From IMG/VR virus record IMGVR_UViG_3300023174_003073, positions 106,987 to 170,986 of that record: a DNA stretch of 64,000 bases. One strand, written 5' to 3'. Made by a program: the position numbers and the translations under genes. Below, piece after piece: positions 9,735 through 50,221 of the stretch; position 1 is the first letter of the stretch, and every line of letters starts with the position of its first letter. The notes beneath the pieces are model-generated. The model was given only the letters and a program-made list of their open reading frames with translations, was not told the DNA's origin and did no database searches. The DNA comes from a virus.

Positions 9735-10241
9735 TTATTTTAAGAACTCGTCAATAGACAAGTCATAATGCAAACTATTTATACGGTGTATACCCAGCAA
9801 AAACAGAACATAGCTGGATACACTACTACCACGACCTACTCCCCAAACTACTTTGTTTGCTCTCATAGTGTCAACTAGGTATTTACAATAACGCAATAAT
9901 TGGAACAAATCTCGTTGCTGATATAATATCAATTCTTGCCCAACTCTTTGCAATTCTGCATTAGTTTGACAAAGGTCTAGTACATATTTGGCTATATCTA
10001 ATTGATTGTATTCTTCTGGTATAAACCAATTACGTTGTAGTTGTTTGTCAAACTCTTCCTTCGACAGAGTTTGTTGTTTGTATTTTTTGAATGTGGGTAT
10101 ATTTTCTATCTCTAAATCTTTATCAAAATAGATATCATCAGAGACTAATGCATTTTTGATTTTTATGTTTGGGTCAGATAAAAAGGCACTACATAAGTCC
10201 ATTTCATCTAATATTTGTTGACCGTATATATCAATTTGCAT
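9735..10241 (-). CDS. dnaE: DNA polymerase III alpha-like N-terminal palm fragment (split DnaE part 1)
   Basis: R...EL...LV...R...VVWGVGRGSSVSSYVLFLLGIHRI....YDL...EFLK matches DnaE GPGRGS..GS...Y.LGIT..DP...LLFERFL; no PHP domain. Confidence 0.85.
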   Translation of the reverse strand: MQIDIYGQQILDEMDLCSAFLSDPNIKIKNALVSDDIYFDKDLEIENIPTFKKYKQQTLSKEEFDKQLQRNWFIPEEYNQLDIAKYVLDLCQTNAELQRVGQELILYQQRDLFQLLRYCKYLVDTMRANKVVWGVGRGSSVSSYVLFLLGIHRINSLHYDLSIDEFLK

Positions 10242-10246
10242 ACGCT

Positions 10247-10275
10247 ATGATAACATAGTTTCTGCAAGAATACAA
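10247..10275 (-). promoter_or_regulatory. sigma70-type promoter TTGTAT-17-TATCAT (extended -10)
   Basis: 5 nt upstream of the ATG of dnaE part 1. Confidence 0.45.
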
Positions 10276-10290
10276 TAGCTATTTGCCCGT

Positions 10291-10521
10291 TTAGGTTTTG
10301 TCGATTTGGATATTGTTTTGGATGTTTTGTTTCTTGTACAATTCATCCATTCTTTTGGCATATTCTTTGTTATAGCCCTCAAGCACCATACTGATTTGGT
10401 TAACTAAAAATTCTTTACCACTACGATGTGCAAAGGTTAGTTTACCGGTAAGGTCTTGTATAGATGCTTGTAATTCATCTATGGTCTTTTTTGATATATC
10501 AGGCATGAAAGGATGTTCCAT
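10291..10521 (-). CDS. hypothetical protein
   Basis: 76-aa helical ORF. Confidence 0.6.
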   Translation of the reverse strand: MEHPFMPDISKKTIDELQASIQDLTGKLTFAHRSGKEFLVNQISMVLEGYNKEYAKRMDELYKKQNIQNNIQIDKT

Positions 10522-10523
10522 AA

Positions 10524-11336
10524 TTATACTCCGCCGTAAATTCCGTCACCAATCTTGCCCCAAATTGGTGTAGTACCATCATATGTACCAACACATATAT
10601 AAACAAAACTACCATCTGTACAAATTGCACCGGGTGCATCTCCTGGTGATCCCAATTCACCAGGATAACGTAATCCAATATAACTTGAAAGTCTACTTCT
10701 ATTCAATGGGAATATAGTTAATGTTGTTCCACAATTTACAGTAGTGATTTTAAACTGTAATTCTTTAACACCTGCAGCCGCAGTAATTTCATTTGTAAAA
10801 CTTGCATTTACTCCAGGACCACCCGGGCTATAATAGTTTTCTAATAAAGACACTGTTGTATCCATACCACCTACTAATATTGCACTTGAATTATATTGAC
10901 TTGATGGGAAATATATTTTATAACCCTCACTGTAATCAATATTCAAATTCAATTGTACGCTAGATTGTGTTCCAGTAGGTGCCCAACCTGCAAAACTGAT
11001 TGTAGTGTCTCCGGTAATAGTACCATATTGAACGTCACCTTTACTTACATCAACAACTAACGTATCATTTATTTCTGCACCTAAATTGTAAGTTGCTGTT
11101 CTAAAACTTCTAACGCTAGCATTACTAATTAATGCTCCTGCTAAATTATTATCTAAAGATGTTCCGGATAAAGGTGACTTTAAAAGTACTTTATTTTGTA
11201 AGTCAGTTAACTCTGTCTTGGTAGTATCCAAATTGTTTTTGATACTGGCAAAGTTGTCTCTGAATCCTTGGCTATTATTATTGACCCCGGGAACAGGATA
11301 ATTTACATCAATTGCGCTTGTATTTAATGAACTCAT
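10524..11336 (-). CDS. virion structural protein (tail/baseplate)
   Basis: FRDNF..IK N-terminal motif; C-terminal G.PGD..G....D....Y.C...Y.....IW module also in 40741..41601; TATAAATA at 11355-11362. Confidence 0.6.
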   Translation of the reverse strand: MSSLNTSAIDVNYPVPGVNNNSQGFRDNFASIKNNLDTTKTELTDLQNKVLLKSPLSGTSLDNNLAGALISNASVRSFRTATYNLGAEINDTLVVDVSKGDVQYGTITGDTTISFAGWAPTGTQSSVQLNLNIDYSEGYKIYFPSSQYNSSAILVGGMDTTVSLLENYYSPGGPGVNASFTNEITAAAGVKELQFKITTVNCGTTLTIFPLNRSRLSSYIGLRYPGELGSPGDAPGAICTDGSFVYICVGTYDGTTPIWGKIGDGIYGGV

Positions 11337-11365
11337 AGTTTGTATTCCATATTGTATTTATAGTG

Positions 11366-13519
11366 TTAAGCATTGGGTAAAATTGTTTTTCTAGGGAATA
11401 AAACGACAACATCATATTTATCCAAAGGATCCGGAACTGGAGTAGCACTAGGTAAATCAGTCCAAGCAGGAACTGATAGTTTAGTATTCCAATTATAAGT
11501 TGCACTCTTGTCTACCATTAACCTATCTATAGTAAAATCAATTTCATTTAGTTTATGTGACCAATTATTATTAATTAGGTCTTTAATAACTGTTGCTTTA
11601 CCTGGCTTAGTATAACATATCACCCATGCTTGAACAAAACCTAATGTTTCACTATTTGTTTGCTGTGTTACCATCCACTTAGGTAACAATCTACTATCAA
11701 AATTTTGTGTCATAGCTGTAGTAATACTGGATCTCATATTCTGCAATCCTGCAGGATATAATATACGAACTGATCCTGGACTTTGACTGGTTTTAATTGA
11801 TCCACTACTAATTGAATACTGTGTTGTGTTAGTAACAAACGACCCTTGACGTAGACTGATATTCTTATACCAGTGTAAATCATCTGCTAATTTATTACCA
11901 TCAATACTTTCTAAGTCATCTATAATTTTACTATATACAACTTCATATAGAATATTGCCATTATCGTCGGTTGCTACAGCAGTGTCAATTGGACCCAATA
12001 CAATTTTTCGTCTATAATGATTTTTTTGTATAGCATCAATGTATTTCTCTAGTGTGCTTGATTCCATGCCATAAACATGAACAAAACTAACATCTTTTGC
12101 TTTTCCAAAATACATATCATCTGCTCTGAATAGGTATTCATCTGGAATTAATGTCTTGTCCGTAAGTAGAGATTGAATTGTTCGCTTTCCTTTTAAATCA
12201 GGAAGTGCTTTTAGATATATATTTTCAAGTGGGTTAGGGTAATATTGATTTACGTTAATCGTAAATGTTTTAAAACTATGAAGTAAAGGGTATTCAGGGG
12301 AAAAACTTTCAACAGTAAAAGTAAAAAGTGTATCAGCACCCTCAGGTAATGCTCTTAGTGTTCCGGGTTGTTCTGCTACTCGACCTGTTATTTCACCGTT
12401 ACTTTGTAAAATTAAATTATTCGGTAGTGAGCCTGATGTTATTCTATAATTAAGTATATGTGCTGATGTTGCTTTAACCTGTAACATACTAATTGTACCA
12501 TTCAATATGGTTCCTAAACTAGTATCAGTATCCCAAACAATATCTTCGTCTATTTCATTTTTAATAGTAAAAACAAATGTTTCTTTTTTAGAAACTAATG
12601 CAGGCTTTATTTTTTTAGCAACAGTAACAGAAATAGTATAACTAAAAACACCCTTTCTTTCCAATATTGGTTTTCCAGTAATCCACCCAGTTGTTTTATT
12701 CCCTACTAAACCTTTAGGCAAATCACCATACTGATATATGAAATCATTATTATCAAAATCTTCACCTAGGATTTTAAATGAAAAATATTCATTGGCTTTA
12801 ATTGTAGGAAGTGTTCTGTTATTTAAAACATAATAATCATAGTAAGGATCGTCAGGAAGAATAGGTTCAGACTTTGGTTTTCTATTTAAAATTACAGGGA
12901 TTCTTGTGTTTTGTAATCCACCTAATTCTTTGTTACGTACTTCAATTGAATACACAACAGTATCATTTCCTAATTCACTGGTTAATTGAACTGAGAATGT
13001 ATATGTTTTTGTTGTAGGACTTCTGTCACCTAACACTGGTTTATCAGGATATCCCTTAATAAGACCGGTAGAATTTATATACAATCCCGGAGGTAAACTA
13101 CCAGATGAAATTGATGTGGTTACAACATTATCTGCGGAAGGATTAGAATATTTCAATTGATAAGAAACATACACACTATCAATTACATGTAGTATAGTTC
13201 CCGGTAATGTAGTTAGTTTAGGTTTATTTTCTGCACCTGAAATACTTATATTAAAGGATCTGTCTCGGATATTATTTAAATCGTCTGTTGCACGTATAGT
13301 GAAATTATATTCCTGAACAGTTGATGTATTTACTGGCGTACCAGAAATTGTTCCAAATCGACTTAAAGTGGTACCTACAGGTATCATACCACTTAGTAAT
13401 TTATATTGGACTAATGTTGCAGGAAACACCGCACCTGCACTTAACTGAACTACAAGAGGTAATCCTGTTGGGAAGGTACCTAAGTAACCTGAATTTGTAA
13501 TCCAATTTGGTTGTGACAT
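11366..13519 (-). CDS. baseplate/tail protein with putative Ig-like repeats
   Basis: Repeated (S)G.LP.GL....G.I.G.P......FT(V/I) units. Confidence 0.65.
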   Translation of the reverse strand: MSQPNWITNSGYLGTFPTGLPLVVQLSAGAVFPATLVQYKLLSGMIPVGTTLSRFGTISGTPVNTSTVQEYNFTIRATDDLNNIRDRSFNISISGAENKPKLTTLPGTILHVIDSVYVSYQLKYSNPSADNVVTTSISSGSLPPGLYINSTGLIKGYPDKPVLGDRSPTTKTYTFSVQLTSELGNDTVVYSIEVRNKELGGLQNTRIPVILNRKPKSEPILPDDPYYDYYVLNNRTLPTIKANEYFSFKILGEDFDNNDFIYQYGDLPKGLVGNKTTGWITGKPILERKGVFSYTISVTVAKKIKPALVSKKETFVFTIKNEIDEDIVWDTDTSLGTILNGTISMLQVKATSAHILNYRITSGSLPNNLILQSNGEITGRVAEQPGTLRALPEGADTLFTFTVESFSPEYPLLHSFKTFTINVNQYYPNPLENIYLKALPDLKGKRTIQSLLTDKTLIPDEYLFRADDMYFGKAKDVSFVHVYGMESSTLEKYIDAIQKNHYRRKIVLGPIDTAVATDDNGNILYEVVYSKIIDDLESIDGNKLADDLHWYKNISLRQGSFVTNTTQYSISSGSIKTSQSPGSVRILYPAGLQNMRSSITTAMTQNFDSRLLPKWMVTQQTNSETLGFVQAWVICYTKPGKATVIKDLINNNWSHKLNEIDFTIDRLMVDKSATYNWNTKLSVPAWTDLPSATPVPDPLDKYDVVVLFPRKTILPNA

Positions 13520-13520
13520 A

Positions 13521-14144
13521 TTAATGTCCTTGCAATAAATCTAACGCAAGATGATAATGATGCTGTCTATCTTCCAATCCAATAGTTCCGCCGTTAATGC
13601 GTTTTGTTAGTGTAACAAAATCATCATTGTCACAGTATTGATTTAAATTGTTATTGTCCCAGAACCAACCAGCAGAACTGACTGCACCTTCGGGTGTTTC
13701 TAAGTAAGCAACTGTTTCTTCAACACTAATACCTAAATCGGCTGCAAACTTAGTATAGTTGGCGCGACCGGTCAATTGAATTAAACCACGACCACAGAAA
13801 CGATATCCGTCTCCACTTGCCTCGTCACCGTTACTCATGCGATTTGCATAAACACGATTAGCAATCTTTTCAGGCTTACGTTCATATTGTCTTGCTAAGT
13901 CATCAGTGGGGAAATACTTTTTAAAAGTACCCATCAATCCTTTAGCACTATAGTTTAGATTCTCTTTAACAAAATTAAAACCACCTGATTCATGTGCAGT
14001 CTGTGCAACGAATGCTGCCGCTCTACGCATGTTATCATACATGTCATAGTATTCTGCAACTTCATGCAAAGGTTGTGCATATACTTGTAGTACTGTTGCT
14101 TTTGTCTTTGGGCATAATGCCTTTAATAATTCTAATGTTATCAT
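13521..14144 (-). CDS. GH19 chitinase/lysozyme-type endolysin
   Basis: AQTAHESGGF, ENLNYS, GRGLIQLTGRANY, TKRINGG..GL.DR; start trimmed to MITLELL. Confidence 0.9.
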   Translation of the reverse strand: MITLELLKALCPKTKATVLQVYAQPLHEVAEYYDMYDNMRRAAAFVAQTAHESGGFNFVKENLNYSAKGLMGTFKKYFPTDDLARQYERKPEKIANRVYANRMSNGDEASGDGYRFCGRGLIQLTGRANYTKFAADLGISVEETVAYLETPEGAVSSAGWFWDNNNLNQYCDNDDFVTLTKRINGGTIGLEDRQHHYHLALDLLQGH

Positions 14145-14155
14145 AATTTTTCCTT

Positions 14156-17100
14156 TTAAGCGTAAACTGCTGTTAGAGCATACCATTTAGTTAAACTACC
14201 TGCAACTAAATGTATTCTTGCTCCTGGTCCTAATGGATAAGAAGCAATGCCTTCGACTGTTACTCCTGTACCTTGTGGCAGAATATTAATAGTCTGTGCT
14301 GAGTCATTAAACACATACAATTGTCTACCAATAGAAACTGTAGGTGTTAATACATTATACGGGGTTGCACCTACCGCTGTAATAATGTTAATTGTTTTAT
14401 TCATAACCGGATTGTTAGAGGCTGCAGTTAGACCCTGATTTGAACTGAAGTTAACATGACTATCTGCGGCGTCAGTAACAACTAAACCACCTAATGTTGC
14501 TAAACCAGTACTAATACCATTCGTAACTGTTAGGCTGTTTAGTGTACCTACACCAGTAATGTTAGTATATGACCCTGGGGCAATACCATAAGTTAATGAT
14601 GAACTTGATACATTACCAATAATATTTGCACCGTTGGCTGCTGTAATAAAGAAACCATTTGCAAGTATGTTACCTGCATTTAAGTTACCTGCTAATGAAA
14701 GAGCACCGTTTGTAGTAAATGTTGCATTACTTGCACCTGCGCCAACAACTAAACTAATCAAATTACCAACTTGTGTAATTGCTGTTTGTGAACTACCAGT
14801 GACAGTTGTTGCGCTGCCTGCAGTTGATGCTGTGTTGGCTGCACTTGCTAGTGCTACGTAACCTGTAACATTTCCACCAACTAAATTAGACAAGCCACTA
14901 CCCACACCAGTAAATGCGCTGGCAATTATATTACCTGTTGCTGTTAATCCACCACCAAATGTAGCTGAACCAGTACTTATTAAGAATGGTCTAATATTCA
15001 ATGATGCAAGTGTTGTAACAATTGCTCCGGTGGGAGTTAATGTTGCAGTAAACGTAAATGTTCTTGCACCGGTTACTGTGATGACGAACCAATTTGGATT
15101 ACCACCACCAACGTTTGGTGGGTTAGTTGTCGCTGTCGTACCAGTTAATGTAATCTCAGTGCCTGTTGTTGCATTATGATTTGTAGAAGTAGTTACAGTT
15201 ATTAAATTACCAACGTTAGTAATAGAAGTGATACCAATTAATGTACTAGGTAAACTTAAATTTCCTACGTTTGCTGTTCCGGTAACTGCTAATATACCAC
15301 TAGCTACTAAGTTAGCTCCTGAGACATTTCCTGATACTGAAACTAATGTACCATTGATATCTCTAGTTGTGATGTTACCTATGCTTGCATTTCCAGTAAC
15401 TGTCAATAATCCATTGGTTACTAAGTTGCCACCTGATATATTACCAACAGCAGTCATTATACCACTAGATTTCAAAATACCTGCCTCAACATTGCCACTT
15501 AGGAACATATGTGGTGCAGAAAGATTACCAGCAAAACTAGATTGTGCAGTACCAGTGACTGTCAGTACACCACCAATGCTAGCCTCGCCAGTTGAAGTGA
15601 TAGAACCCGGTGTAGTTAAGTTACCAAATCTTGCATTACCTGTTATGTTTGCATTTGCACCATTAAAGTCACTTGCTTGGAAAGTTGTTCCTGAAATCAA
15701 TGAAGAAACAGATAAGTTTATTAGACCAGTTAAACTTCCTAAAATTTCAGCATTACCACCTACTCTTAATCGTCCGTCAAATATACCTGAACCTGCACTA
15801 GTAATTAAAGGTCTTACTGTAATCGTAATTGTTCCGCCTAATGTACCTGTTGGGGCAACTGCGGCTGTTACAGTGAATGTTGTTGGGTTACCACCTGAGT
15901 TAGGTGTAGCAGGTACAGTTGTTACTAAGAATACCCCGTTTGGTGCATTTGTACCTGTAGTTGTAACTCCGGATATTACTACTTCAGTACCAACAGTTAA
16001 ACCATGTGCTATAGTACTTGTAACAGTAATTGCAGTGCCTACATATGAAACAGATATTGTTCCTGACAATGTAGTTGCGGTTGGGAATCTTAAATTACCA
16101 ACATTAGCTTGTCCTGACACTAATAATGCACCACCAACGTTAGCATTACCAGATGCTACTACGTGTGTCATACTTGCATTACCAACGATAGCATTACCTC
16201 TAACGTTTAAAATACCTAACGTTTCTATATTACCGTGTGTACTATTACCTGATATGTTTGCAGTTGCTATGTTTGCAATACCGGTAATATTAGCATTAGC
16301 TGATTTAAGTAAACCATTTAGTGTTGTAATATCACCAGTAGATGTAATATGCATTACATCAGCAATATTACCTATGTTCGCATTTGCAGTTACTCTAAAC
16401 ACACTACCAGAGAAGTTTGCATTACCTGTTGAATCGATATGTAATGATGTTAGCGTACCGGTAATATTTGAACTTAATGCTTTAATTAAACCTGTATTAG
16501 CATATAAACTGCCCGCAGTTTCTAACATAGCAACGTTTGCTATACCAGTAACATTAGCATTTTGTGAAACTAAATAACCAGAGGTAGCAGATACGTTACC
16601 TAATGCAACAACGCTAGACGTATTGACATTACCGGCGGATACATTTCCGGCAATACTTGCAGAACCAGCACTAGATAATATAGGTCTAATTGTAATAGAA
16701 GTACTTGCCCCTACAGTAATTGGTGCTGAAGGTGCTACATTAACTATAAATTCGAATCTGTTTGCATCAACTATATTAGAAACAGTCCAAGTACCATTAG
16801 TTGTTGTACTTGCATTTGTTACAACAATTGTTGCTCCAACTACTGTCATACCGTGAGGATCTACAGTAGTAACACGAATAGTCGTACCAACATACAATAT
16901 TGATGTAATCTTAGATGTACCGGTTAGTACAACTGTTGGTAAAGTCATATGCGATACATTAGCTGTACCAGCAACAGTCAATTGTCCAGGTGTTGATAAG
17001 TTACCACCAGTCAATGTATTAGTTGCAACTAAGTTTGCAGCCTGAACATTTGCTTGAGATGTAATATTACCTGCTTGTGTTACTTCACCAAATTGTGCTT

Positions 17101-19924
17101 CTGCTGACACATTGAATAGTGATCCAGTGAATCTTGCATTACCTGAACTATTAACATGTAACAAAGTAGCAGTTCCAGTAATATTAGTATTGGCTGCTCT
17201 TAATAATCCACTGTTTGCATATAAATCACCAGAAGCAGTTAAGTGTGTAGTACTTGCATTACCAAATGTACCTGTACCAGTGACACTTAATGTTCCACCA
17301 AATACCCCCGAACCTGTACTTGTCATTAATGGTTTAATAGATAGTGTTGCGGCTCCTGAGCCAACACTACCTGTTGGTGTTGATGTTGCGGTAAATGTGA
17401 ATGATGTTGTAGAAACAATTGTTGCAACTATCCAAGTACCGTTAGGTGGATTAGTAGTTGCTGTCAATCCACTAATAGTAATCTGTGCACCTGCAACTGC
17501 CATACCATGGTCATTAGACGTAGTTACTGTTACCGTTGTACCAATATATGTTACACTTGATACTGCTACTGTAGTTATGTTAGGTAATACAACATGTGAG
17601 AAGTTAGCAGTACCGTTAACACTTAATGCATTACCATACATTGCACTTGCAGATACATTACCACCAGTAACATTACCGGCAGTAATTGCAGTAATGTTAG
17701 CATTGGCTGCATTTACCCAGCCACTTGTGGCGTTGATATTACCAGGTGTTCCTAAATTACCAAACTGTGCGTTACCTGTGATGTTTGCATTCTGTGCATT
17801 GACCCAGGCTGCTGTTGCATTAATATTACCAGTAGCAAAAATTTGTTGTGATACAGTGACATTCCCTTGTGATGTTAGTGTACCTACGTTTGCTATACCA
17901 TCAATGCTTGCATTACCTGTAGTTTTAAATGACCCTACATTAGCAAGACCTGAACTTACAAAACTACCACCGATTGTAATTGAAGTATTAGCACCGCCGT
18001 TAATATTACCTGTAGCTACAATAATACCTGTTGATAAGTTGCCTGCGCTTGCATTACCTACTACTGCTAGAATACCACCAGTAGTTATATTTGCACCATC
18101 TAGATTTCCTCTTGCAGACAAATCTAATGTTGTTAATTTTGTTGTTACGTTTACGTTAGCAGTTGTTACATTACCTGCATTGACAATAGTACCGTTGATG
18201 TTGGCGCCACCTTCTAATGCAGCCGAACCCACAACTCTGATAATACCGCTGGCAATAAGATTAGCACCACTGACGTTACCTGATACACTTACGACTGTAC
18301 CATCTAATCTTGTTGTTGTAATATTACCTACGTTTGCGTTACCCTGAACACGTAAAATTCCATTGGTTACTAGATTTGCACCAGTAACATTACCAGTAAC
18401 GTCTGCATCACCTCTACTAATTAAGGAAGCAACGTTTGCTGATGATGTAGCAAACATAATACCAGTTGACACTAAATTACCAGCAGAAAGATTTGCTGTA
18501 ATTGACATTAAACCTGTTGTTCTATTATATGTAGCACCAGTATGTGCGTTAGCAATACCACCGTCATTGAATAATAGTTGTGTAGTAGTTCCAGGAACTC
18601 CGATGTTACCTGAGATATTACCACTAACGTTTCCAGATACATTACCTGTCATAGTCCCAGATAAATTTCCACTGATGTTACCGGATACATTACCTGCAAC
18701 ATTTCCTGAGAAATCCCCTGAGATATTGCCGCTGACATTACCAGAGACATTACCAGTTAAAGTACCAAGTACATTTCCTGACATTGTGCCTACAGTCATT
18801 GTAGTTGCACTAAAGAATCCTGCATTCATTCTGGCTGCATCAACATTACCAGTCAATGAAATATTTCCACCGGTCATGTTACCTTCAACTGCTAATCCAT
18901 CTAATAAACCTACTTTTCTAATATTAGGTTGATTAGCAGATTGTACTGTACCAGTGATGAATGTTGCACTGATATTACCAATTGCGGCATTACCGTCAAC
19001 GTTTAGTGTAACTAGATTACCTAAACTAGTAATGTTAGGTTGATTGTTGCTTGTAACTTGTAATGCACGATCGGCAGTTCCAGTTAAATTACCAGTAACA
19101 TTACCCAATAAACTACCAGTAACATTACCTTGAATAGCAGGTGATATCAATGTACCGGCAACTTGTAGACTTGTTAATGTACCAACAGATGTAATATTAG
19201 GTTGAGCATTGCCACTTACTACACTTGCATTTGATGCAGGTCCAATGAATGTTCCATAATAATTTCTAGCATATACATCTTGTGTTACATTTACACTTTG
19301 ATTGATGTTTATATTTCCGTTAGTTACATTGAAATCACCAGTAAGATTTAGTGTCGTACCAGTATATACTAATCTAGATGCGGCTGCTAAGTTACCGCGA
19401 TTATTAAATAATACCTGAGTATTTGCACCGGGTGCAGAGAATGTACCTGATATAGTTCCACCAACCAAGTTACCAACAAAGTTGGCTGCTGTTACATTAC
19501 CTGTTACACCTAAAGATACTAATGTACCAACACTAGTAATGTAAGGTTGTGAGGGAGTACGTAATGTACCATAAATATTAGTAGATGTTAAATTAGCTAC
19601 TGTAATATTACCAGACAAACCAATAACAAACGGAGTTTGACCGTTAGTAATTGTTGCTGAATTTCCAGTAGCGGCTCCGATACCCACTGCTAATCCAGAT
19701 CCTGTTTGTATTGTTACACTTGGTATATTTGCAGTTATAACTACTGACCCAGTAGTTCTATTTTGTGCTAGTCCACTACCTGTGGTTAATGATACAACAC
19801 CTGTTGTAAGTGTTGTTGAATATAAATCTGTAAAGTTATTCTGTACCTTGGCAAAGGCTGCTCGTATCGGGTCGGCAGCAGGGTCATTTGGGAATGCGCC
19901 GAAATCTATAATTTGTTGTGCCAT
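14156..19924 (-). CDS. long tail fibre / receptor-binding protein (1922 aa)
   Basis: D..R.AF.K...NF N-terminus; G/N/T/A/V-rich GN-repeat shaft; four inserted HG domains; GATAAATA at 19944-19951. Confidence 0.8.
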   Translation of the reverse strand: MAQQIIDFGAFPNDPAADPIRAAFAKVQNNFTDLYSTTLTTGVVSLTTGSGLAQNRTTGSVVITANIPSVTIQTGSGLAVGIGAATGNSATITNGQTPFVIGLSGNITVANLTSTNIYGTLRTPSQPYITSVGTLVSLGVTGNVTAANFVGNLVGGTISGTFSAPGANTQVLFNNRGNLAAASRLVYTGTTLNLTGDFNVTNGNININQSVNVTQDVYARNYYGTFIGPASNASVVSGNAQPNITSVGTLTSLQVAGTLISPAIQGNVTGSLLGNVTGNLTGTADRALQVTSNNQPNITSLGNLVTLNVDGNAAIGNISATFITGTVQSANQPNIRKVGLLDGLAVEGNMTGGNISLTGNVDAARMNAGFFSATTMTVGTMSGNVLGTLTGNVSGNVSGNISGDFSGNVAGNVSGNISGNLSGTMTGNVSGNVSGNISGNIGVPGTTTQLLFNDGGIANAHTGATYNRTTGLMSITANLSAGNLVSTGIMFATSSANVASLISRGDADVTGNVTGANLVTNGILRVQGNANVGNITTTRLDGTVVSVSGNVSGANLIASGIIRVVGSAALEGGANINGTIVNAGNVTTANVNVTTKLTTLDLSARGNLDGANITTGGILAVVGNASAGNLSTGIIVATGNINGGANTSITIGGSFVSSGLANVGSFKTTGNASIDGIANVGTLTSQGNVTVSQQIFATGNINATAAWVNAQNANITGNAQFGNLGTPGNINATSGWVNAANANITAITAGNVTGGNVSASAMYGNALSVNGTANFSHVVLPNITTVAVSSVTYIGTTVTVTTSNDHGMAVAGAQITISGLTATTNPPNGTWIVATIVSTTSFTFTATSTPTGSVGSGAATLSIKPLMTSTGSGVFGGTLSVTGTGTFGNASTTHLTASGDLYANSGLLRAANTNITGTATLLHVNSSGNARFTGSLFNVSAEAQFGEVTQAGNITSQANVQAANLVATNTLTGGNLSTPGQLTVAGTANVSHMTLPTVVLTGTSKITSILYVGTTIRVTTVDPHGMTVVGATIVVTNASTTTNGTWTVSNIVDANRFEFIVNVAPSAPITVGASTSITIRPILSSAGSASIAGNVSAGNVNTSSVVALGNVSATSGYLVSQNANVTGIANVAMLETAGSLYANTGLIKALSSNITGTLTSLHIDSTGNANFSGSVFRVTANANIGNIADVMHITSTGDITTLNGLLKSANANITGIANIATANISGNSTHGNIETLGILNVRGNAIVGNASMTHVVASGNANVGGALLVSGQANVGNLRFPTATTLSGTISVSYVGTAITVTSTIAHGLTVGTEVVISGVTTTGTNAPNGVFLVTTVPATPNSGGNPTTFTVTAAVAPTGTLGGTITITVRPLITSAGSGIFDGRLRVGGNAEILGSLTGLINLSVSSLISGTTFQASDFNGANANITGNARFGNLTTPGSITSTGEASIGGVLTVTGTAQSSFAGNLSAPHMFLSGNVEAGILKSSGIMTAVGNISGGNLVTNGLLTVTGNASIGNITTRDINGTLVSVSGNVSGANLVASGILAVTGTANVGNLSLPSTLIGITSITNVGNLITVTTSTNHNATTGTEITLTGTTATTNPPNVGGGNPNWFVITVTGARTFTFTATLTPTGAIVTTLASLNIRPFLISTGSATFGGGLTATGNIIASAFTGVGSGLSNLVGGNVTGYVALASAANTASTAGSATTVTGSSQTAITQVGNLISLVVGAGASNATFTTNGALSLAGNLNAGNILANGFFITAANGANIIGNVSSSSLTYGIAPGSYTNITGVGTLNSLTVTNGISTGLATLGGLVVTDAADSHVNFSSNQGLTAASNNPVMNKTINIITAVGATPYNVLTPTVSIGRQLYVFNDSAQTINILPQGTGVTVEGIASYPLGPGARIHLVAGSLTKWYALTAVYA
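18600..18790 (-). repeat. imperfect 12-nt tandem repeat encoding G-N-[VIL]-S units
   Basis: GNVSGNVSGNISGDFSGNVAGNVSGNISGNLSGTMTGNVSGNVSGNISGNIG. Confidence 0.8.
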
Positions 19925-42333: not shown

Positions 42334-42362
42334 ATTATAGTGAATTATAATCCAACTGTCAA
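42334..42362 (-). promoter_or_regulatory. consensus sigma70 promoter TTGACA-17-TATAAT
   Basis: Exact consensus, 8 nt before ATG 42325. Confidence 0.85.
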
Positions 42363-42372
42363 CTGTATTTGG

Positions 42373-42687: not shown

Positions 42688-42689
42688 GT

Positions 42690-43424
42690 TTAACGCTTGG
42701 CTCTGCCTACTGCCGGAACAGGTTCTTCTGGTTCTTCTTCAGGCATCTCAGGAGCTGCCATTGCGTCAGCACCCATTTCTTCTCCACCCATGTCAGGAGC
42801 CATTTCATCGCCGCCTGCTATTGGATCTGCACCCATGCCATCATCCATACCAGCGCCCATCTCATCACCCATGCCAAAGCCACCATCTTGACCTGTCACA
42901 ACGCCTAATGCGCCTTGTAGACCTGTCTTAGATTGTGTTAGTGCGGCTTGTAATGAAGTCAATGCCTCTGATACTTGGCTACTAAATTGTTCACCTTCAC
43001 TTGTACCAAACTCGCTGTTAACACCGTCAACAACTGCTGGTAATTCTTTTACTAGCATATCACTAACTTGTTCAATCATCTTCTGCATTGAATCAACCAT
43101 TTCTTGTGCGGCTAGAACAACTTGAGATTTTTCAACTTCTTCGTTCTCGACTACAATTCGTGGATTATACATTGGAAGTGATTTCAAATCACCATAGTGA
43201 TGTGTTAATGCTTGTTCCATGAATACAAGTTTCAAGTAAGCAGGATTTTGCTCTCCGCTCATTGATTTTTGTTTAGCTTCTGACATCAATCCTTTGACTT
43301 TCTTAAGCATATTCTTGGTCTCATAAAGACCTAGCTTATCAACATTGAAGGATGTGTTGAAGTGTTCTTTCAGTGCTTGTTTAGCGACTGAAGTTGGTTT
43401 AGCGTTAAATTCGGTTAGTTTCAT
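42690..43424 (-). CDS. hypothetical late protein (possible prohead core/scaffold)
   Basis: MKLTEF N-terminus, helical, acidic G/M-rich tail; GATAAATA at 43450-43457. Confidence 0.55.
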   Translation of the reverse strand: MKLTEFNAKPTSVAKQALKEHFNTSFNVDKLGLYETKNMLKKVKGLMSEAKQKSMSGEQNPAYLKLVFMEQALTHHYGDLKSLPMYNPRIVVENEEVEKSQVVLAAQEMVDSMQKMIEQVSDMLVKELPAVVDGVNSEFGTSEGEQFSSQVSEALTSLQAALTQSKTGLQGALGVVTGQDGGFGMGDEMGAGMDDGMGADPIAGGDEMAPDMGGEEMGADAMAAPEMPEEEPEEPVPAVGRAKR

Positions 43425-43467
43425 AGTTTTTCCTAGAGTACTGATAATATATTTATCATTGGTTTAA

Positions 43468-43959
43468 TTATTTTGCGGAGTTTAGTGCAAATTGTTTGTG
43501 CTGCCAAGCATTGGCTTTCTCTACAAACTTCTCTAATTCATCCAATAAATGCTGTTTCTTTAGCATATCTTCGTTCATTTTAGCAATGACGATAGTCTTA
43601 GTTTCCAAGTTTTTAATGGTTTTACTAAGTTTTTGACGAACTTTTAGGTTCTCAATTGTCCCGTATAATATGCTGTCCAAATAAAGTACACGGTTAGCAT
43701 CAGTTACAGAATTTGTTTTATCTAATGTAATCCAAGTGACAGCGTTCTTTAATTCAGCAAATGTATAGGTAGTGTGAGTTTTATTCTTGCTCATTACATA
43801 TCCCATATCATTCTTTTTTATAGAATATTCTCCATATAAATGATAAACACCAGCCGAATCCTGATAAACAATTTCTTTTTCTAATTTTGACAGTTTCTCT
43901 TTACTAAGCATTTTAGCTAAGATAGAGAATAATTTATCATTTTTATTACCCATGCTCAA
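43468..43959 (-). CDS. hypothetical protein
   Basis: 163-aa ORF. Confidence 0.65.
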   Translation of the reverse strand: MSMGNKNDKLFSILAKMLSKEKLSKLEKEIVYQDSAGVYHLYGEYSIKKNDMGYVMSKNKTHTTYTFAELKNAVTWITLDKTNSVTDANRVLYLDSILYGTIENLKVRQKLSKTIKNLETKTIVIAKMNEDMLKKQHLLDELEKFVEKANAWQHKQFALNSAK

Positions 43960-44404
43960 TTACCTCAAAATATATATTTCTTAATTCAGGACTAACATCT
44001 AAAAATGTCGGCAACTTATTTAATTCTGTTCCAATATGTATCATTGGTACACCATCACAATCTGTAAATAAATGTCCCAATTCTTCAGTTCCATTATTAA
44101 ATACACTTCCAAACATCACAGTAAAATCAAACGTCCAGACCGGACAAGGTGTTTCTGATTCTAATAAAAATCCAAATTTTTCCGTATCAGTTAATGATAT
44201 TTCATCTTTATGTGGATCAGTAATATCTTCAGGTAAACTACGTAATGAAATTACTTGGATAATTGTATCAAAATTGCATTGCGTATTTCTTTGCTTTTCC
44301 CACAGTGATATCTTTTCATCTACTGGAACAGGTGTATTTCTTCTATTTGTAATGCCTGTTTTTGTAATATCAAACAGGGTATAGCATCTTATTTTTAACG
44401 ACAT
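43946..44404 (-). CDS. hypothetical late protein
   Basis: 152 aa; TATAAATA at 44409-44416, 4 nt before the ATG. Confidence 0.65.
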   Translation of the reverse strand: MSLKIRCYTLFDITKTGITNRRNTPVPVDEKISLWEKQRNTQCNFDTIIQVISLRSLPEDITDPHKDEISLTDTEKFGFLLESETPCPVWTFDFTVMFGSVFNNGTEELGHLFTDCDGVPMIHIGTELNKLPTFLDVSPELRNIYFEVIEHG

Positions 44405-44421
44405 ACACTATTTATAGAGGT

Positions 44422-44449
44422 AAAAAAGCCCGCAATAAAAGCGGGCTTT
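44422..44449 (-). terminator. intrinsic terminator
   Basis: AAAGCCCGC/GCGGGCTTT stem with a T-run on the minus strand. Confidence 0.8.
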
Positions 44450-44463
44450 ATGAGTCTATATTA

Positions 44464-45237
44464 TTACGGTACTATAGGTGAAGCTGTTCCGCGATTATAT
44501 GCTAATCTAGCCTGTTGATCCATTGATAACGGATCATGTGCAGTTGAAGAACCTACTGTTTCTTTTGAACCATTAAATGAATATGCTTGAGTATTTGCTT
44601 GTCCAATAGTTGCCATTACTTTAGCAACTTTGTCATAACTCTTACTCGCAACCGCTTGTTGTAACTCTTTCTGATATGCCCCGTCATTCCACTTATTTGT
44701 CACTAAATATCCGTCCACAAATCCACCAAGGTCAAACGGTTTACCATGTGTTTGTGCAATCATTTCATTATGTTTTATTTGATTAATAAACTTCTTACTA
44801 AAGATTTGTATTGCTCTGCGTTGCACCATTGATTGTGCTGGGTTTTTAAACCAGCTATATTTTGCGGCTGTAGGACCTGTTTGTGTCTGTGATGCAGTCG
44901 TTGGGGTAGTTTGTGTTGGGGTTGTTTGTGTTGGGGTAGTTTGTGCCTGTGATGAAGTTGATGGAGTGGTTTGTGTTGGAGTTGTTTGTGCTTGTGTAGA
45001 GGCAGTATAAGGGGACGGTGGAATAACTCTTCCGGGCACCTGATATGAACCGTTACCTGCAGCCATGGTAGTTGTTGCATTGCTAGCAGACTGCATGTTT
45101 GTAGGCGCTGTTGGAGCTGAAGTTGTAGGGGCTAGATTGGACCTTTGAGCGTTAGCATTGCGTCTTTTAGCGTTCATACTAGCTTGTTTACGGCGGCTAG
45201 CATTACCCTCATCTAATATAAATTCACTCGCTCTCAT
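44464..45237 (-). CDS. hypothetical protein with Thr/Pro/Gln-rich repeat linker
   Basis: MRASEFILDE N-terminus; QTTPT repeats. Confidence 0.65.
   Translation of the reverse strand: MRASEFILDEGNASRRKQASMNAKRRNANAQRSNLAPTTSAPTAPTNMQSASNATTTMAAGNGSYQVPGRVIPPSPYTASTQAQTTPTQTTPSTSSQAQTTPTQTTPTQTTPTTASQTQTGPTAAKYSWFKNPAQSMVQRRAIQIFSKKFINQIKHNEMIAQTHGKPFDLGGFVDGYLVTNKWNDGAYQKELQQAVASKSYDKVAKVMATIGQANTQAYSFNGSKETVGSSTAHDPLSMDQQARLAYNRGTASPIVP
44878..44998 (-). repeat. 15-nt tandem repeats encoding QTTPT
   Basis: gtttgtgttggggta-like units on the + strand. Confidence 0.75.
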
Positions 45238-45475
45238 TATCTTTTTTCCTCAAACTTTTTGAGAATCTACCTTGGTCACGTGCTTTAATTGCACTTAGCA
45301 ATTTTCTCTCTAAAATTTGAGCCTTTTCACCGTCATAATGCTTATTAATCATTTCTAATAAATTAATTGCACTGGTAATAATATTGTGGGCACGGCTTTC
45401 AATAATATGTGACGTATCACGATTATTGCCAATTGCTTCTAATTCTTCTAAAAGACTGCGAGTTTTTCGTTGCAT
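45224..45475 (-). CDS. hypothetical late protein
   Basis: 83 aa; GATAAATA at 45497-45504. Confidence 0.65.
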   Translation of the reverse strand: MQRKTRSLLEELEAIGNNRDTSHIIESRAHNIITSAINLLEMINKHYDGEKAQILERKLLSAIKARDQGRFSKSLRKKDNESE

Positions 45476-45502
45476 TTTTGGTATAGATCCTAATAGTATT
45501 TA

Positions 45503-46915
45503 TCAATTTTTGAGATTGTTAAGTAGTGCTTTTAATTTGCTACCCTGCACGTCTGCAACTACCCGTTTAGTTTCTTCAGGAATATAGATATTTTCCCCAA
45601 CCACAGTTGACTGGGGCTTTAATTGATTCATAATCTCGTTAGGACTAGGGGCAGGACGATACTTCATTTGCTGATCTCCATGACCCTCAGGATCCTCGTC
45701 TGTAATTCTCATGGTTTCTACGTTATATTCCAAGTCAATTTTTTGACCTACACCAGTCGAACTACGACTTTTCATACACTGAATCTGATACTTACCGCGT
45801 TCACGCATACTACGACTTGTAAAGATACCAAATACGTTATCTGCTGTATTAATCTTACTGATACCACCTGCAATATGACTATGGTCAAACTCAATTTCTT
45901 CAACTGCACTACGATTCAACTGACTTGCAGTAACCATTAATACACCTAATTCTTTGGATAGGTTACGCAATTCTTCTGACACATACTTGTCTTTAATAAA
46001 CTGGTCGTTAGGATTTACTTTAACAGACACGGGCATTACTAGATCCAGATAGTCAATCATCACAAAGTCAACTTTGATACCTGTTTGTATCTGTACTTCT
46101 TTCAAGTAACTACGAATATCGTTAACATTGCTTTGTGCGGGCAATCCTTTAACACGATAGTCACCTGATTTCTTACCTGCTAATTTAACTTTAAGTTCAG
46201 TATTATCAATATCTTTACGAATGTCTCTGGTACTCATCATAGTCAACATCGCATCAGTTCTAAGTGAAGTCAATTCTTCTGAGAGTTCCAATGAGATATA
46301 AACGCCACTCAATCCCATACCTAACCAATTCAGTGCAATGTTCATCATCACCAATGATTTACCTGAACCTGAACCACCTGCAAAGATATTCAATTCACCT
46401 CGACTAAAGCCACCATACAACAACCTATCAAGTTGCGGCCAGCCTGTGCTTTGTTGTCCACCTGCATTAAAGTATTTGTGCAATCGTCCTTTAGGGTCAG
46501 CAAAGTAATCTGTACCCATATCTCGTTGTAAACTAATCTGCACTGCTTCTTTGATTAGTTTCTCGACGGGACCAAAGTCACCCTTCTCTAACAAATCGGC
46601 TGCTTTGAGGATTGCTCGTTCTAATTCTTGTCTTTTAGTAAATGATTCAAATTCTTCTAAGAACCATTCAGTATGTTTATCACCGAAATCTTCAACCATA
46701 TCAAGTTGAACACCTGTGGTCGCTACAATTTGTTTACTATCGGGTAGTAAACTATACTTCTCACTATATTCTATCATAAACTCTGCAACAGGTCTTAAAG
46801 ACTTGTCAAAGTTCTGAGCATTCATAATATTCATTACCCTTGTATACAATTCTGCATTTGTCAGAATCATTTGTAAAAAGAGTTTTTGAATCTCTACGTT
46901 ATATTCCTTTTGCAA
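45503..46915 (-). CDS. replicative DNA helicase (DnaB/T4 gp41-like)
   Basis: GGSGSGKS, YISLEL, IDYLDL, TASQLNR, TAD, KSR; TTG start. Confidence 0.92.
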   Translation of the reverse strand: MQKEYNVEIQKLFLQMILTNAELYTRVMNIMNAQNFDKSLRPVAEFMIEYSEKYSLLPDSKQIVATTGVQLDMVEDFGDKHTEWFLEEFESFTKRQELERAILKAADLLEKGDFGPVEKLIKEAVQISLQRDMGTDYFADPKGRLHKYFNAGGQQSTGWPQLDRLLYGGFSRGELNIFAGGSGSGKSLVMMNIALNWLGMGLSGVYISLELSEELTSLRTDAMLTMMSTRDIRKDIDNTELKVKLAGKKSGDYRVKGLPAQSNVNDIRSYLKEVQIQTGIKVDFVMIDYLDLVMPVSVKVNPNDQFIKDKYVSEELRNLSKELGVLMVTASQLNRSAVEEIEFDHSHIAGGISKINTADNVFGIFTSRSMRERGKYQIQCMKSRSSTGVGQKIDLEYNVETMRITDEDPEGHGDQQMKYRPAPSPNEIMNQLKPQSTVVGENIYIPEETKRVVADVQGSKLKALLNNLKN

Positions 46916-46916
46916 T

Positions 46917-47417
46917 TCAATTTCCTTTGTTTATTGATGTGTCATATTGACCATCAATCAAAATATATAACATACGACATACATTTGATGACCTATTAGC
47001 CCATGCATGGTTAGTACCTCGTTGTATTACAACTGCCCCTTTTTGTAAATCAACTTCTGAATCATCTAATACTAATGTAATCTCTCCTTCCATCACGATA
47101 CTATAATCAATTGATTCAGTGACATGCATTAAGGGATGTGGTTTTAAAAATCTAAATTCTGTAGTCTCAGGTGGAATATCAGCAAATCTAATTCTTGTAC
47201 CATTTTTTGGAGGTTCAAATTTTAATGGGCTGTTTGTAGGATCAATCCTATTATCAATTATTGCTGGCATTTCTGTAGTATTCCATACTTCGTGTAATAC
47301 AAGACCTGGAATAATATCTAAATCAAAAACATTAGGCAAAGTTCCATTTGAAGTTATTATTGATTTACCCTCATTGTTGTGACCTGTAACCACACGATGA
47401 ATCTTGGGATAAGTCAT
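46917..47417 (-). CDS. cupin-domain protein
   Basis: RVVTGH...GKS; MH.TESIDY.IV.EGEI.L.LD; G.VVIQRGTNHAW.N. Confidence 0.88.
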   Translation of the reverse strand: MTYPKIHRVVTGHNNEGKSIITSNGTLPNVFDLDIIPGLVLHEVWNTTEMPAIIDNRIDPTNSPLKFEPPKNGTRIRFADIPPETTEFRFLKPHPLMHVTESIDYSIVMEGEITLVLDDSEVDLQKGAVVIQRGTNHAWANRSSNVCRMLYILIDGQYDTSINKGN

Positions 47418-48391
47418 TCTATGGCCTTTAATAATTTACGCTTTTGCATTTCTATTTTAATTTTACTCATTGTAGCATTTTCTAATATACTTAGTAAAGT
47501 AGGCAATCTACCATATTTTACCACTGCATCATTCACATCTTTAACTGAGCTATCCCAATCAGGTAAACTAACACTATACCCAAACTCTAATGCTTTGTCA
47601 CATATCTCCAGACCAGTCGCATCACGATCGGGTACAACGATTATTTTCTTATTCAATTGTGCTAGCAATTGTGCTTGTTCTGTTGATATTGTATTATGTG
47701 TTAAAGCACAACCATGAATGCTCAATGCATCAAAAATACCTTCAACTACGATACATGCTTGCCATTCTGGTTTCTGAAAATCATATCCAAATACATATCC
47801 TGCTTCTTGGTCATTGATATACTTAGGAATTCTGTTATCTAAAAATCTGCTCGTATGACCTACAGTTTTTCCCTTATATGTATAGGGGATAACAATTCGA
47901 TTTGATTGTCTGCCCTTATCATTGGGTGTGACTACAAAGGGTAATATTGTTTTATCAATCTTTCTGTTTTGTAGATATTGTAAGAATACACTATGATTAG
48001 GATTATTGCTATCTAACAATTCACCGTCAGGTAATTCTCTTGCTTTAAACGAAATTGTTTCACGAACCTTTTTGGTATATGTAAAATCTAAAAAGTCTTT
48101 GTTGCGTAAACTTTCAAGACTCCAAAGTTGAATCTGTTCTATGTCAACACCACACCACAATAAGAATTGTTTTGCTCTTTCAGAAATAACTCTTCCCAAA
48201 GTAAAACTGCAACTATAGCTACAGTTAAAGCAATGGTATACCCAGTTAGTTTGTCCATCAAACTTAATACCACCTCTGAATCTATCATCAGGCCTATGCC
48301 CACGATGGGAACAACAAATTGCGTTGAAACTAGTCCAACCACCACTTGTTTGTTTCTTACGACCGGGTATTATTGAGAGTATATCAAACAT
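47414..48391 (-). CDS. DNA primase (T4 gp61-like; Zn finger + TOPRIM)
   Basis: C..C and HCFNC Zn ligands; RIVIP, PKY; VEGIFDA, PDRD..G, KDVNDA. Confidence 0.9.
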   Translation of the reverse strand: MFDILSIIPGRKKQTSGGWTSFNAICCSHRGHRPDDRFRGGIKFDGQTNWVYHCFNCSYSCSFTLGRVISERAKQFLLWCGVDIEQIQLWSLESLRNKDFLDFTYTKKVRETISFKARELPDGELLDSNNPNHSVFLQYLQNRKIDKTILPFVVTPNDKGRQSNRIVIPYTYKGKTVGHTSRFLDNRIPKYINDQEAGYVFGYDFQKPEWQACIVVEGIFDALSIHGCALTHNTISTEQAQLLAQLNKKIIVVPDRDATGLEICDKALEFGYSVSLPDWDSSVKDVNDAVVKYGRLPTLLSILENATMSKIKIEMQKRKLLKAIE

Positions 48392-48398
48392 CTGTGTT

Positions 48399-48427
48399 AG
48401 TATAACACAATGTCATTCATATTACAA
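48399..48427 (-). promoter_or_regulatory. sigma70-type promoter TTGTAA-17-TATACT (extended -10), 7 nt before the primase ATG
   Basis: Read directly. Confidence 0.65.
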
Positions 48428-48440
48428 GAATGATGGTTAC

Positions 48441-49193
48441 TTATCTTACTAAAATCTGGTTAATTGTTCCGCCCGAACTATAGAACTCTACACGCAAACG
48501 AGGGAAATACCCTTCCACATTGATATAGTCAGTGCTTGTATAACCAGAATAAGATACTTCATCGCTGATGTAAAACCATTCAGTATCGTTACCGGATACA
48601 GATCCTTGTATTCGCAGTGTACCCATATAATCAGTAAGTTGTGTTTGGAACGTAAAGAATGATACATCATTTGGTGTGTAAGGTGAGCTATAGAATGTTA
48701 CCGGAGCTTGTTCAGTTGGTGTAGTATGTACAGGTATATCCAATTGCTCAGAGGGTAGATACTTTGGTAATACACTATTAACTATGTCAATAACACCTCT
48801 GCCACCTGCACTATCATCCACAAATACTGGATACTCAAATGTACTTTCCGGAATAGTCAACGAATAATAACACAATGTTGCATCCATTTCTAATGTTTCA
48901 CTGGAAAGTACCTGTAATGTTGCAATCCCAGTCAAAGGATATAATAGTGTTAATGCTTTCTGTAGTATAACTTCTGATCCATCATAACTCATTAATCTGC
49001 AATTAATTGTCTTTCCTGTGATATCAACGGGTTTTTGGTCTTGATTTAAAAACTGAAATTGCAGTTGATTGTCAATTCCTTTGTGGATTTTTAGATTTTT
49101 AGCATACACGGTTTGATATCTCCTAGGTGAGGATCCTGAATACAATACTACAGTTTGTCGGGGGATATAATAGTTTACTGAGGTAGAATACAA
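48441..49193 (-). CDS. putative virion protein (BppU-like N domain)
   Basis: KG.DN.LQFQ..NQDQKPVDITG; C-terminal module like 289..645; TTG start. Confidence 0.5.
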   Translation of the reverse strand: MYSTSVNYYIPRQTVVLYSGSSPRRYQTVYAKNLKIHKGIDNQLQFQFLNQDQKPVDITGKTINCRLMSYDGSEVILQKALTLLYPLTGIATLQVLSSETLEMDATLCYYSLTIPESTFEYPVFVDDSAGGRGVIDIVNSVLPKYLPSEQLDIPVHTTPTEQAPVTFYSSPYTPNDVSFFTFQTQLTDYMGTLRIQGSVSGNDTEWFYISDEVSYSGYTSTDYINVEGYFPRLRVEFYSSGGTINQILVR

Positions 49194-49276
49194 AATATTG
49201 GTCCTTTACTATATTTATTAAATTTAAATACATTGGGCAACCAAATATGATAAATAAATCCGAGAACACTAAAATA

Positions 49277-49657
49277 ATGATTCAAAACGAATTCTTCAAC
49301 AAACTAACTAAAAATCACCCCTTCATAACCATTTGTTCCTACGCAGGACAAGATTACGTTGGAATAGTACAAAATCGTGATGAAATAGTCACAACTATCT
49401 ATGATTACGGGGCGATAGTTGATAACATTCTTAGGGAAAAGTTCTTAGAATTAGGTGATACATGGTGGTGGGAAAGTAATCGATTAGTACCCATCAATAT
49501 GTTCTTAAAAGAAGAATGGATCATGTTCAAACCCTATCTTAGAACATTCAATAACAAAAGTCTCACTGTAGTTCATGGCCCGATATGCAGTATATTAGAA
49601 CTGGCCAAAAGAAAATCAAAAAGAAAATCAATTACTCTCGTTAAGAGAATGTCCTAA
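49277..49657 (+). CDS. conserved phage hypothetical protein
   Basis: WWWESNR..PI..FL motif; GATAAATA at 49249-49256; start trimmed to MIQNEF. Confidence 0.6.
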   Translation: MIQNEFFNKLTKNHPFITICSYAGQDYVGIVQNRDEIVTTIYDYGAIVDNILREKFLELGDTWWWESNRLVPINMFLKEEWIMFKPYLRTFNNKSLTVVHGPICSILELAKRKSKRKSITLVKRMS

Positions 49658-50221
49658 TTCTTCTAATAAGTTCATATGAACAACTACCAAGTGTGCGTAG
49701 GCAATAGCATGACTTTTCTTAAAGCTATACCCATCAATATTCTTCTCCCACACTGTCTCCGCAACTTCTTTCCAAGATAATCCAATTAAATGCTTTTTAG
49801 CAGGTCGAATGATTGCTAGCATCATAGCAAGTCTCGGTATGCTATTGATAGGTTCTAACATCTTTTGCATACTATAATAATGATTGCTCAAGTGAATTAA
49901 TTGTTCCACGAATGTTTTGTCATTTAGTTTATCCCAATTAGGTTCACGCATCAATTCAATTAGATGCTGTTCGTCACGTACTTTATCATATACATGAACA
50001 TTCAAAAAGTCTAGTTTGAGATACCCTCGTTGGTCTGCTTCACTATAGTCTATATTAGCCATGTCAAGTAATGCATCGTATGGAACTTCTGTTACATAGA
50101 TACCTGTTGCATGTTTACGAATAGGGTTTGCTCTACGCATTGCCGCAGGAACATGAGATATATATTGTAAAATATTATCTCTGTTCCCGAAGTCAATATC
50201 AATATCAGACTGAAACTTCAT
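49628..50221 (-). CDS. dnaE: DNA polymerase III alpha-like catalytic fragment (split DnaE part 2, miniaturised)
   Basis: SDIDIDF, KHATGIYV, GYLKLDFL, LAIIRP, GYSFKKSHAIAYA correspond to DnaE PDFDIDF, KHAGGVVI, GLVKFDFL, ALYRP, GYGFNKSHSAAYA. Confidence 0.88.
   Translation of the reverse strand: MKFQSDIDIDFGNRDNILQYISHVPAAMRRANPIRKHATGIYVTEVPYDALLDMANIDYSEADQRGYLKLDFLNVHVYDKVRDEQHLIELMREPNWDKLNDKTFVEQLIHLSNHYYSMQKMLEPINSIPRLAMMLAIIRPAKKHLIGLSWKEVAETVWEKNIDGYSFKKSHAIAYAHLVVVHMNLLEELGHSLNESN

Follow-up and report, generated by a model that had tools for sequence, protein, structure and literature searches.

The window analysed here is the last 64 kb of a 170,986-bp IMG/VR viral contig, which CheckV rated 43% complete. 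Two open reading frames (ORFs) of this window were studied, one at 9735-10241 (named part 1) and one at 49628-50221 (named part 2). Both are on the minus strand, with 39.4 kb between them. A first-pass annotation, made from the sequence alone, had read them, without naming the strand, as the two halves of a split, intein-free and miniaturised DNA polymerase III alpha (Pol III alpha, DnaE) core. Part 1 matched the Pfam family PF07733 (DNA_pol3_alpha) with an E value of 2.4e-8 and 34.4 bits, against a gathering cut-off of 23.9, and its residues 98-167 fell on profile positions 25-94. It also matched phrog_11127, annotated as 'DNA polymerase' (E 3e-41). The Pfam search with part 2 gave no match. 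Part 2 matched phrog_11778, also annotated as 'DNA polymerase' (E 1e-54), and weakly matched the full-length DnaE PHROG at positions 577-636 and 773-809.

Part 1 was aligned with 23 diverse relatives (38-94% identity). The invariant columns were W71, P74, Y77, R98, E102 and the W132-GVGRGSS-139 loop. G133-V-G-R-G-S-S139 of this loop is the nucleotide-binding GxGRGS loop of PF07733. EFLK forms the C-terminal end in almost all of the relatives. The coordinates, the PF07733 match and the conserved end agreed with the first-pass description of an ORF that carries the GxGRGS motif and stops at EFLK. Part 2 was aligned with 54 relatives (30-91% identity), among which D6, D8, D10, K69, D71, W96, R139, P140 and H171 were invariant, as were the RP and KSH finger motifs. 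The DxD, KLD, RP and KSH motifs proposed for part 2 were all found and aligned to E. coli Pol III alpha, and the invariance of D6, D8 and D71 settled the question of whether the catalytic aspartates are conserved in orthologues. A metagenomic protein of 233 amino acids (aa), P0381, corresponded to the part 2 N-terminus (DxDxD ... KLD) over its first ~105 residues, and the remainder looked unrelated. P0381 could come from a chimeric assembly, or could be a copy that was truncated and recombined.

The ratio of nonsynonymous to synonymous substitution rates (dN/dS) against close relatives was 0.07-0.09 for part 1 and 0.06-0.08 for part 2, indicating strong purifying selection. Pseudogene decay, which the first-pass annotation had named as a possible refutation, was rejected on these values. 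The extreme truncation, and the many records in which both genes are annotated as hypothetical, would fit inactive remnants of an ancestral dnaE, or proteins whose role is purely structural or regulatory. However, all catalytic and nucleotide-binding residues are invariant, dN/dS is low for both genes, and thousands of metagenome clusters have retained them. We regard the relic explanation as barely credible.

Profile searches of the PDB with the alignment of either half matched Pol III alpha chains only, and the matches were colinear with the E. coli motifs. With either half as a single sequence, phmmer found no polymerase among the PDB sequences; only the profiles found Pol III alpha. By profile mapping, part 1 residues 98-168 correspond to E. 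coli alpha 322-392. The start of part 2 falls on E. coli alpha 399 (MPDFDVDF), so its D6 and D8 correspond to D401 and D403. With D71 aligned to D555, the three palm acidic residues of C-family polymerases are all present. K69 is equivalent to K553, the RP motif lies at E. coli 639-640, and KSH corresponds to K758-S759-H760.

The two halves were folded separately with AlphaFold 2. The predicted local distance difference test (pLDDT) score was 85.6 for part 1 and 93.6 for part 2. Plain Foldseek gave part 2 only weak matches (best E 3e-3), the first 11 of which were all Pol III alpha, and VIA structure alignment was then used. Part 1 residues 68-167 aligned with DnaE/PolC at Z 8.6-10.5 and a root-mean-square deviation (rmsd) of 2.1-3.0 over 91-97 residues, and superposed on E. 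coli alpha 277/279-393. These residues are the first section of the palm, including the nucleotide-binding loop. Part 2 aligned at Z 6.0-9.8 and rmsd 3.1-4.6 over 183-194 of its 197 residues, and its residues 1-193 superposed on E. coli alpha 397-784. The palm/finger fold of both halves was thus superposable on solved DnaE/PolC structures. In the part 2 ranking the top 13 matches were all PolC/DnaE and the next had a Z of 3.4; DnaE/PolC were the best and only significant fold matches. Bacterial DnaE/PolC (PDB 2hnh, 2hpi, 3f2b) and the two ORFs share the Pol-beta-like palm, the GRGS loop, the Asp triad, the K553 equivalent and the RP and KSH motifs.

By structure alignment, the chain is broken at E. 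coli alpha 393/397. The halves abut within ~3 residues, as the first-pass annotation had anticipated in saying that they join almost exactly. The 197 residues of part 2 cover a stretch of 388 E. coli residues (397-784), about half of which is deleted, which removes the thumb and a large portion of the fingers. Unlike DnaE/PolC, which exceed 1100 aa, the two products together have ~365 aa and are without the PHP domain, thumb, HhH/clamp-binding domain, OB fold and tau-binding domain.

Part 1 residues 1-67 form a family-specific N-terminal extension that touches part 2 in the complex model described below. The structure searches run gave no match for this region. In the model the extension packs on part 2 via residues 43-51 and 65-68. 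In RaK2-type relatives a different, shorter N-terminus replaces it. The extension might be a remnant of the PHP domain.

The Pol-beta superfamily includes many non-polymerase transferases. With the thumb and all DNA-duplex-binding modules lost, the two ORFs might together be a Pol-beta-fold nucleotidyltransferase that no longer copies templates, acting instead as a terminal transferase, in the synthesis of nucleotide second messengers, or in nucleotide addition to DNA ends or proteins. This is unlikely. The invariant RP and KSH motifs belong to the polymerase fingers in DnaE, and the closest folds are exclusively replicative C-family enzymes, with Z falling from at least 6.0 to 3.4 for the others.

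Further Pol III domains were looked for elsewhere in the genome. The PHP model PF02811 and the finger Pfam models had no match in the contig. In two relatives rated complete by CheckV, the full-length DnaE profile phrog_405 (1190 positions) matched only two small ORFs, and the matches were confined to positions ~315-440 and 576-809. No profile match to the thumb, HhH/clamp-binding, OB or tau-binding domains was obtained beyond the two ORFs in the contig and the two complete relatives. The first-pass statement that no PHP, HhH, clamp-binding or OB domain is visible therefore held for the DnaE profile in these complete genomes. The separate B-family polymerase that it had proposed to look for was found in the same contig, as a 926-aa frame ~15 kb before the window. 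A family B polymerase was also present in four of five relatives. In one of them (G004:C1:73352-75780) the match was divided between two open frames, one of 560 aa and one of 417 aa, and this family B polymerase may itself be split or interrupted.

These searches bear on whether the two ORFs are pieces of a conventional Pol III-type replicase whose missing domains (PHP/proofreader, thumb, clamp binding, OB) come in trans from elsewhere in the phage genome. Many small ORFs of unknown function, the exonuclease and the conserved convergent ORF that flank part 2, and the incompleteness of the contig would leave room for such genes. However, the full-length DnaE profile matched nothing beyond the two ORFs in the complete relatives, and a complete T4-type family B polymerase with a clamp loader is present. 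Iyer et al. (PMC7824862) concluded likewise. An in-trans replicase is accordingly very unlikely.

The two halves co-occurred consistently. Part 2 was present in all five large related contigs found via part 1, two of which were rated 100% complete. Among isolate phage records, some of them partial, 96 had part 2 and 92 had part 1, and the distribution over genera was the same. In metagenomes the two halves formed ~7,400 and ~7,900 clusters at 90% identity. The spacing of the two genes in relatives ranged from 34 to 182 kb. In one relative (G004) they lie on opposite strands, 128 kb apart, so co-transcription is not needed and was rejected as a requirement.

Heterodimer prediction with purpose-made alignments gave an interaction prediction score from aligned errors (ipSAE) of 0.91 in three runs, against 0.23 for the best control. 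The mark used for a pass had been reached by 58 of 80 solved complexes and by 2 of 110 mismatched pairs; the pass may partly reflect the model's memory, because structures of full-length DnaE have been solved. The runs agreed in at least 97% of contacts, and the pLDDT of the partner was at least 89. In the complex model the GRGS loop (residues 132-133) contacts D8-F11 of part 2, which is the DxD strand. Both the co-occurrence check and the complex-model check that had been proposed thus came out in favour of a pair.

Natural fusions of the two halves were also found. P0280, P0391 and P0392 have 375-376 aa and consist of part 1, a 9-residue linker and part 2. They are 78-81% identical to each other and came from ENA and Logan assemblies of different sources. 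At the locus of one of them lies the small convergent ORF that is typical of part 2 loci. As Rosetta-stone evidence independent of any model, these protein sequences argue for assembly of the two halves and confirm the size and the junction of the core. In the split relatives closest to the fused forms (L168), a 200-aa gene that overlaps part 2 was tested as a part 1, and it is not one.

Intein trans-splicing was rejected. Neither gene has intein motifs, as first noted from the sequence, and there is no extra sequence at the junction. N- and C-fragments of an intein are not found at the break, which runs from E. coli 393 (last position of part 1) to 397 (first position of part 2), and the fusions have the 9-residue linker only. 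Products that abut within ~3 E. coli residues leave no room for intein fragments. As in the cyanobacterial split-intein DnaE, a dnaE-type polymerase is encoded by two separated genes; unlike it, intein halves are absent and the products are minimal rather than full length. Non-covalent joining is therefore expected.

The neighbouring genes are listed in Table 1.

Table 1. Features of the window discussed in the text
Feature	Position	Strand	Remarks
PhoH-like ATPase	6815-7441	+	beyond the clamp loader; flanks it together with the co-chaperonin
RFC/gp44-like clamp loader	7736-8659	-	phrog_168, E 4.5e-69
GroES-like / T4 gp31-like co-chaperonin	8991-9359	-	phrog_931/3188
Small ORF	9356-9724	-	phrog_14844; downstream of part 1
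Part 1	9735-10241	-	168 aa; predicted N-terminal half of a minimal Pol III alpha core
DnaB-like helicase	45503-46870	-	downstream of part 2
Cupin-domain ORF	46917-47417	-	166 aa; PF07883, E 3.6e-9; between primase and helicase
Primase	47414-48391	-	downstream of part 2; phrog_47/phrog_19 matches for the primase-helicase segment
Convergent small ORF	49247-49657	+	136 aa; phrog_11637; no Pfam match
Part 2	49628-50221	-	197 aa; predicted C-terminal half; three catalytic Asp (D6, D8, D71), K69, reduced fingers, thumb missing
Three sugar-nucleotide genes	50205-52391	-	between exonuclease and part 2; Pfam and PHROG matches
Epimerase/reductase-like	50205-50999	-	sugar-nucleotide cassette
Cytidylyltransferase-like	50996-51484	-	sugar-nucleotide cassette
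4,6-dehydratase-like	51468-52391	-	sugar-nucleotide cassette
Rv2179c-like DEDDh 3'-5' exonuclease	52388-52951	-	187 aa; PF16473, E 1.6e-31; phrog_255

In the window, the exonuclease is the first gene in a chain of overlapping ORFs whose last member is part 2. The first-pass annotation had placed part 2 in a coupled operon with this exonuclease. The chain bears this out, but three sugar-nucleotide genes intervene between the two. Across related IMG/VR loci the link is stronger than the window suggests: in ~49 of 50 loci the exonuclease is on the same strand as part 2 and lies directly upstream of it, often abutting or overlapping it, with 0-3 inserted genes. The exonuclease is a candidate partner of the split core on these gene-order data, and the link is specific to this environmental clade. 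Relatives carry 0-3 genes at the position of the sugar-nucleotide cassette, so the site behaves as an insertion hot spot. The cassette is variable and no part of the polymerase.

Downstream, the order part 2, convergent small ORF, structural protein, primase and helicase was conserved in all 67 related IMG/VR loci and in PA5oct, RaK2 and Atu_ph07, and the proximity of part 2 to primase and helicase claimed earlier is correct, both genes lying just downstream. At their 3' ends the convergent ORF and part 2 share 30 nt, and each of the 67 loci has this ORF downstream of part 2, on the strand opposite to it. In the three isolates, small ORFs are annotated on the opposite strand at the same position, the likeness being one of position and strand. 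The product of the convergent ORF is a possible partner or regulator of part 2.

Around part 1, the order in the window is part 1, small ORF, GroES-like gene, clamp loader and, further on, PhoH. The order in PA5oct is similar, with a hypothetical gene, a 'chaperonin', a 309-aa unannotated ORF in the clamp-loader position and PhoH on the opposite strand. The earlier claim that part 1 heads the operon of the clamp loader stood in so far as the clamp loader is two genes downstream. A position of part 1 at the head found no support in a scan for sigma-70 promoter-like sites around it, which numbered 22, against 19 +/- 4.4 expected, and were not enriched.

These neighbourhoods bear on the main alternative, in which the same heterodimer would be a dedicated repair polymerase (gap-filling or base-excision) and not a fork component. 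Its analogue would be Pol X of African swine fever virus (ASFV), a minimal X-family enzyme that consists of the nucleotidyltransferase fold and one further subdomain and acts with an apurinic/apyrimidinic (AP) endonuclease in repair (PMC11646218). The architecture of the two ORFs, cut to the palm and partial fingers, resembles that description, a 3'-5' exonuclease gene is tightly linked in this clade, and Iyer et al. (PMC7824862) list repair as an option. However, what is conserved family-wide next to the two ORFs is primase, helicase and clamp loader rather than repair nucleases or a ligase, and no linkage to an AP endonuclease or ligase was seen at the compared loci. We consider a repair enzyme a realistic but rather improbable alternative. 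ASFV Pol X is, like the present system, a virus-encoded, reduced polymerase of the Pol-beta fold, but it belongs to family X and not C, is a single chain and comes from a eukaryotic virus. The comparison is a functional analogy only, for a thumb-less, distributive short-patch enzyme.

A system of this kind has been described before. Iyer, Anantharaman, Krishnan, Burroughs and Aravind (2021, Viruses 13:63; PMC7824862) reported, from comparative genomics, a minimal split Pol III alpha in group 2.2 jumbo phages, that is, RaK2/PA5oct/Atu_ph07-like phages. According to these authors, the split enzyme accompanies a family B polymerase, other Pol III domains are absent, and strand-specific synthesis or repair was proposed. 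Buttimer et al. 2017 (PMC5259590) had noted a 'truncated' 172-aa Pol III alpha in phage CBB, and Attai et al. 2018 (PMC6102473) found alpha and epsilon homologues conserved across RaK2-like phages. Orthologues of the group 2.2 split Pol III alpha occur in PA5oct, RaK2, 121Q/PBECO4, CBB, Atu_ph07 and SCTP-2.

The system in the window agrees with the group 2.2 system in having two standalone proteins from distant genes, one N-terminal and NTP-binding, the other C-terminal and Mg-/template-binding. Further Pol III domains are absent from both systems, and both have a family B polymerase alongside. It also shares the PHROG families and the flanking synteny. A T4-type replisome is present, with the family B polymerase in the contig and the clamp loader, primase and DnaB-like helicase in the window. 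In tblastn searches against RaK2/PA5oct/Atu_ph07-type phages, part 2 had 36-45% identity over 95-97% of its length and part 1 had 35-48%. Beyond this divergence in sequence there were further differences. Part 1 of the window carries more N-terminal sequence than the RaK2-type proteins, where the tblastn match begins at residue 72. In this environmental clade, the Rv2179c-like exonuclease lies directly upstream of part 2. The fused 375-aa relatives have no counterpart in the passages of Iyer et al. (PMC7824862) that were consulted. Judged by its sequence, the window system is a new environmental member of a kind already published in 2021, and the first-pass reading is a correct, independent rediscovery. 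The fused forms, the heterodimer model, the deep synteny of part 2 with primase and helicase, and the exonuclease linkage are added here.

From homology, fold, active-site conservation, co-occurrence, purifying selection, the fused forms and a complex model that passed its controls, it is very probable that the two ORFs encode the two chains of the minimal split Pol III alpha known from group 2.2 jumbo phages. The enzyme probably serves in short-patch synthesis. All checks run supported the earlier description of an intein-free, two-gene, ~365-aa C-family core with a Pol-beta fold that is too stripped to be a processive replicase. In the mechanism that we propose, part 1 contributes the opening half of the Pol-beta-like palm, including the GRGS loop that binds the triphosphate, and part 2 contributes the metal-binding Asp triad, K69 and a cut-down finger domain. 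The halves would be translated separately and assemble non-covalently, without an intein, into the ~365-aa core. This core has a full C-family active site and is without PHP, thumb, clamp-binding/HhH and OB domains. We infer that the heterodimer would be an active, template-directed but poorly processive (distributive) DNA polymerase, working beside the family B replicase of the phage. Its most likely task would be short-patch synthesis at the fork, either extending primase-made primers or filling gaps. A fork-associated role is favoured because part 2 is fixed next to primase and helicase family-wide. In this clade the heterodimer may work together with the adjacent Rv2179c-like 3'-5' exonuclease.

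Several points weigh against this interpretation of the split core. The core has no thumb and no recognisable duplex-DNA- or clamp-binding element with which to hold a primer-template. The absence of further DnaE domains rests on two complete relatives, this contig being only 43% complete. In the alignment of relatives, the C-terminal tail of part 2 is unconserved. The complex model shows likeness, not binding. The gene neighbourhood is weak evidence of role, since both loci also have structural genes among their members. In PA5oct the upstream neighbour of part 2 was tested as an exonuclease and is unrelated, and the exonuclease was not found in a related contig (G005), so it cannot be an obligatory subunit. 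A literature search found no enzymatic, genetic or expression study of any member.

More speculatively, the split core, the exonuclease and perhaps the convergent ORF of this large environmental clade could form a minimal proofreading C-family polymerase, coupled to primase and helicase, that extends primers before hand-off to a clamp-bound Pol B. This proposal is tentative, and we would not expect it to prove right. If true, the replisome would have two polymerases, as with DnaE and PolC in Firmicutes or Pol alpha and delta in eukaryotes, but with parts of ~170-200 aa.

Metagenomes are rich in the split Pol III alpha family, which forms thousands of clusters at 90% identity there, and phage-therapy candidates such as PA5oct and RaK2-like phages have it too. 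The fused forms, the heterodimer model and the exonuclease linkage make its biochemistry easier to approach. If active, it would be the smallest known C-family polymerase, with ~365 aa in two chains or 375 aa in a single chain, and would show what the bacterial replicase fold minimally needs as a catalytic unit. T4-like jumbo phages would then run a second, bacterial-type polymerase beside their family B enzyme.

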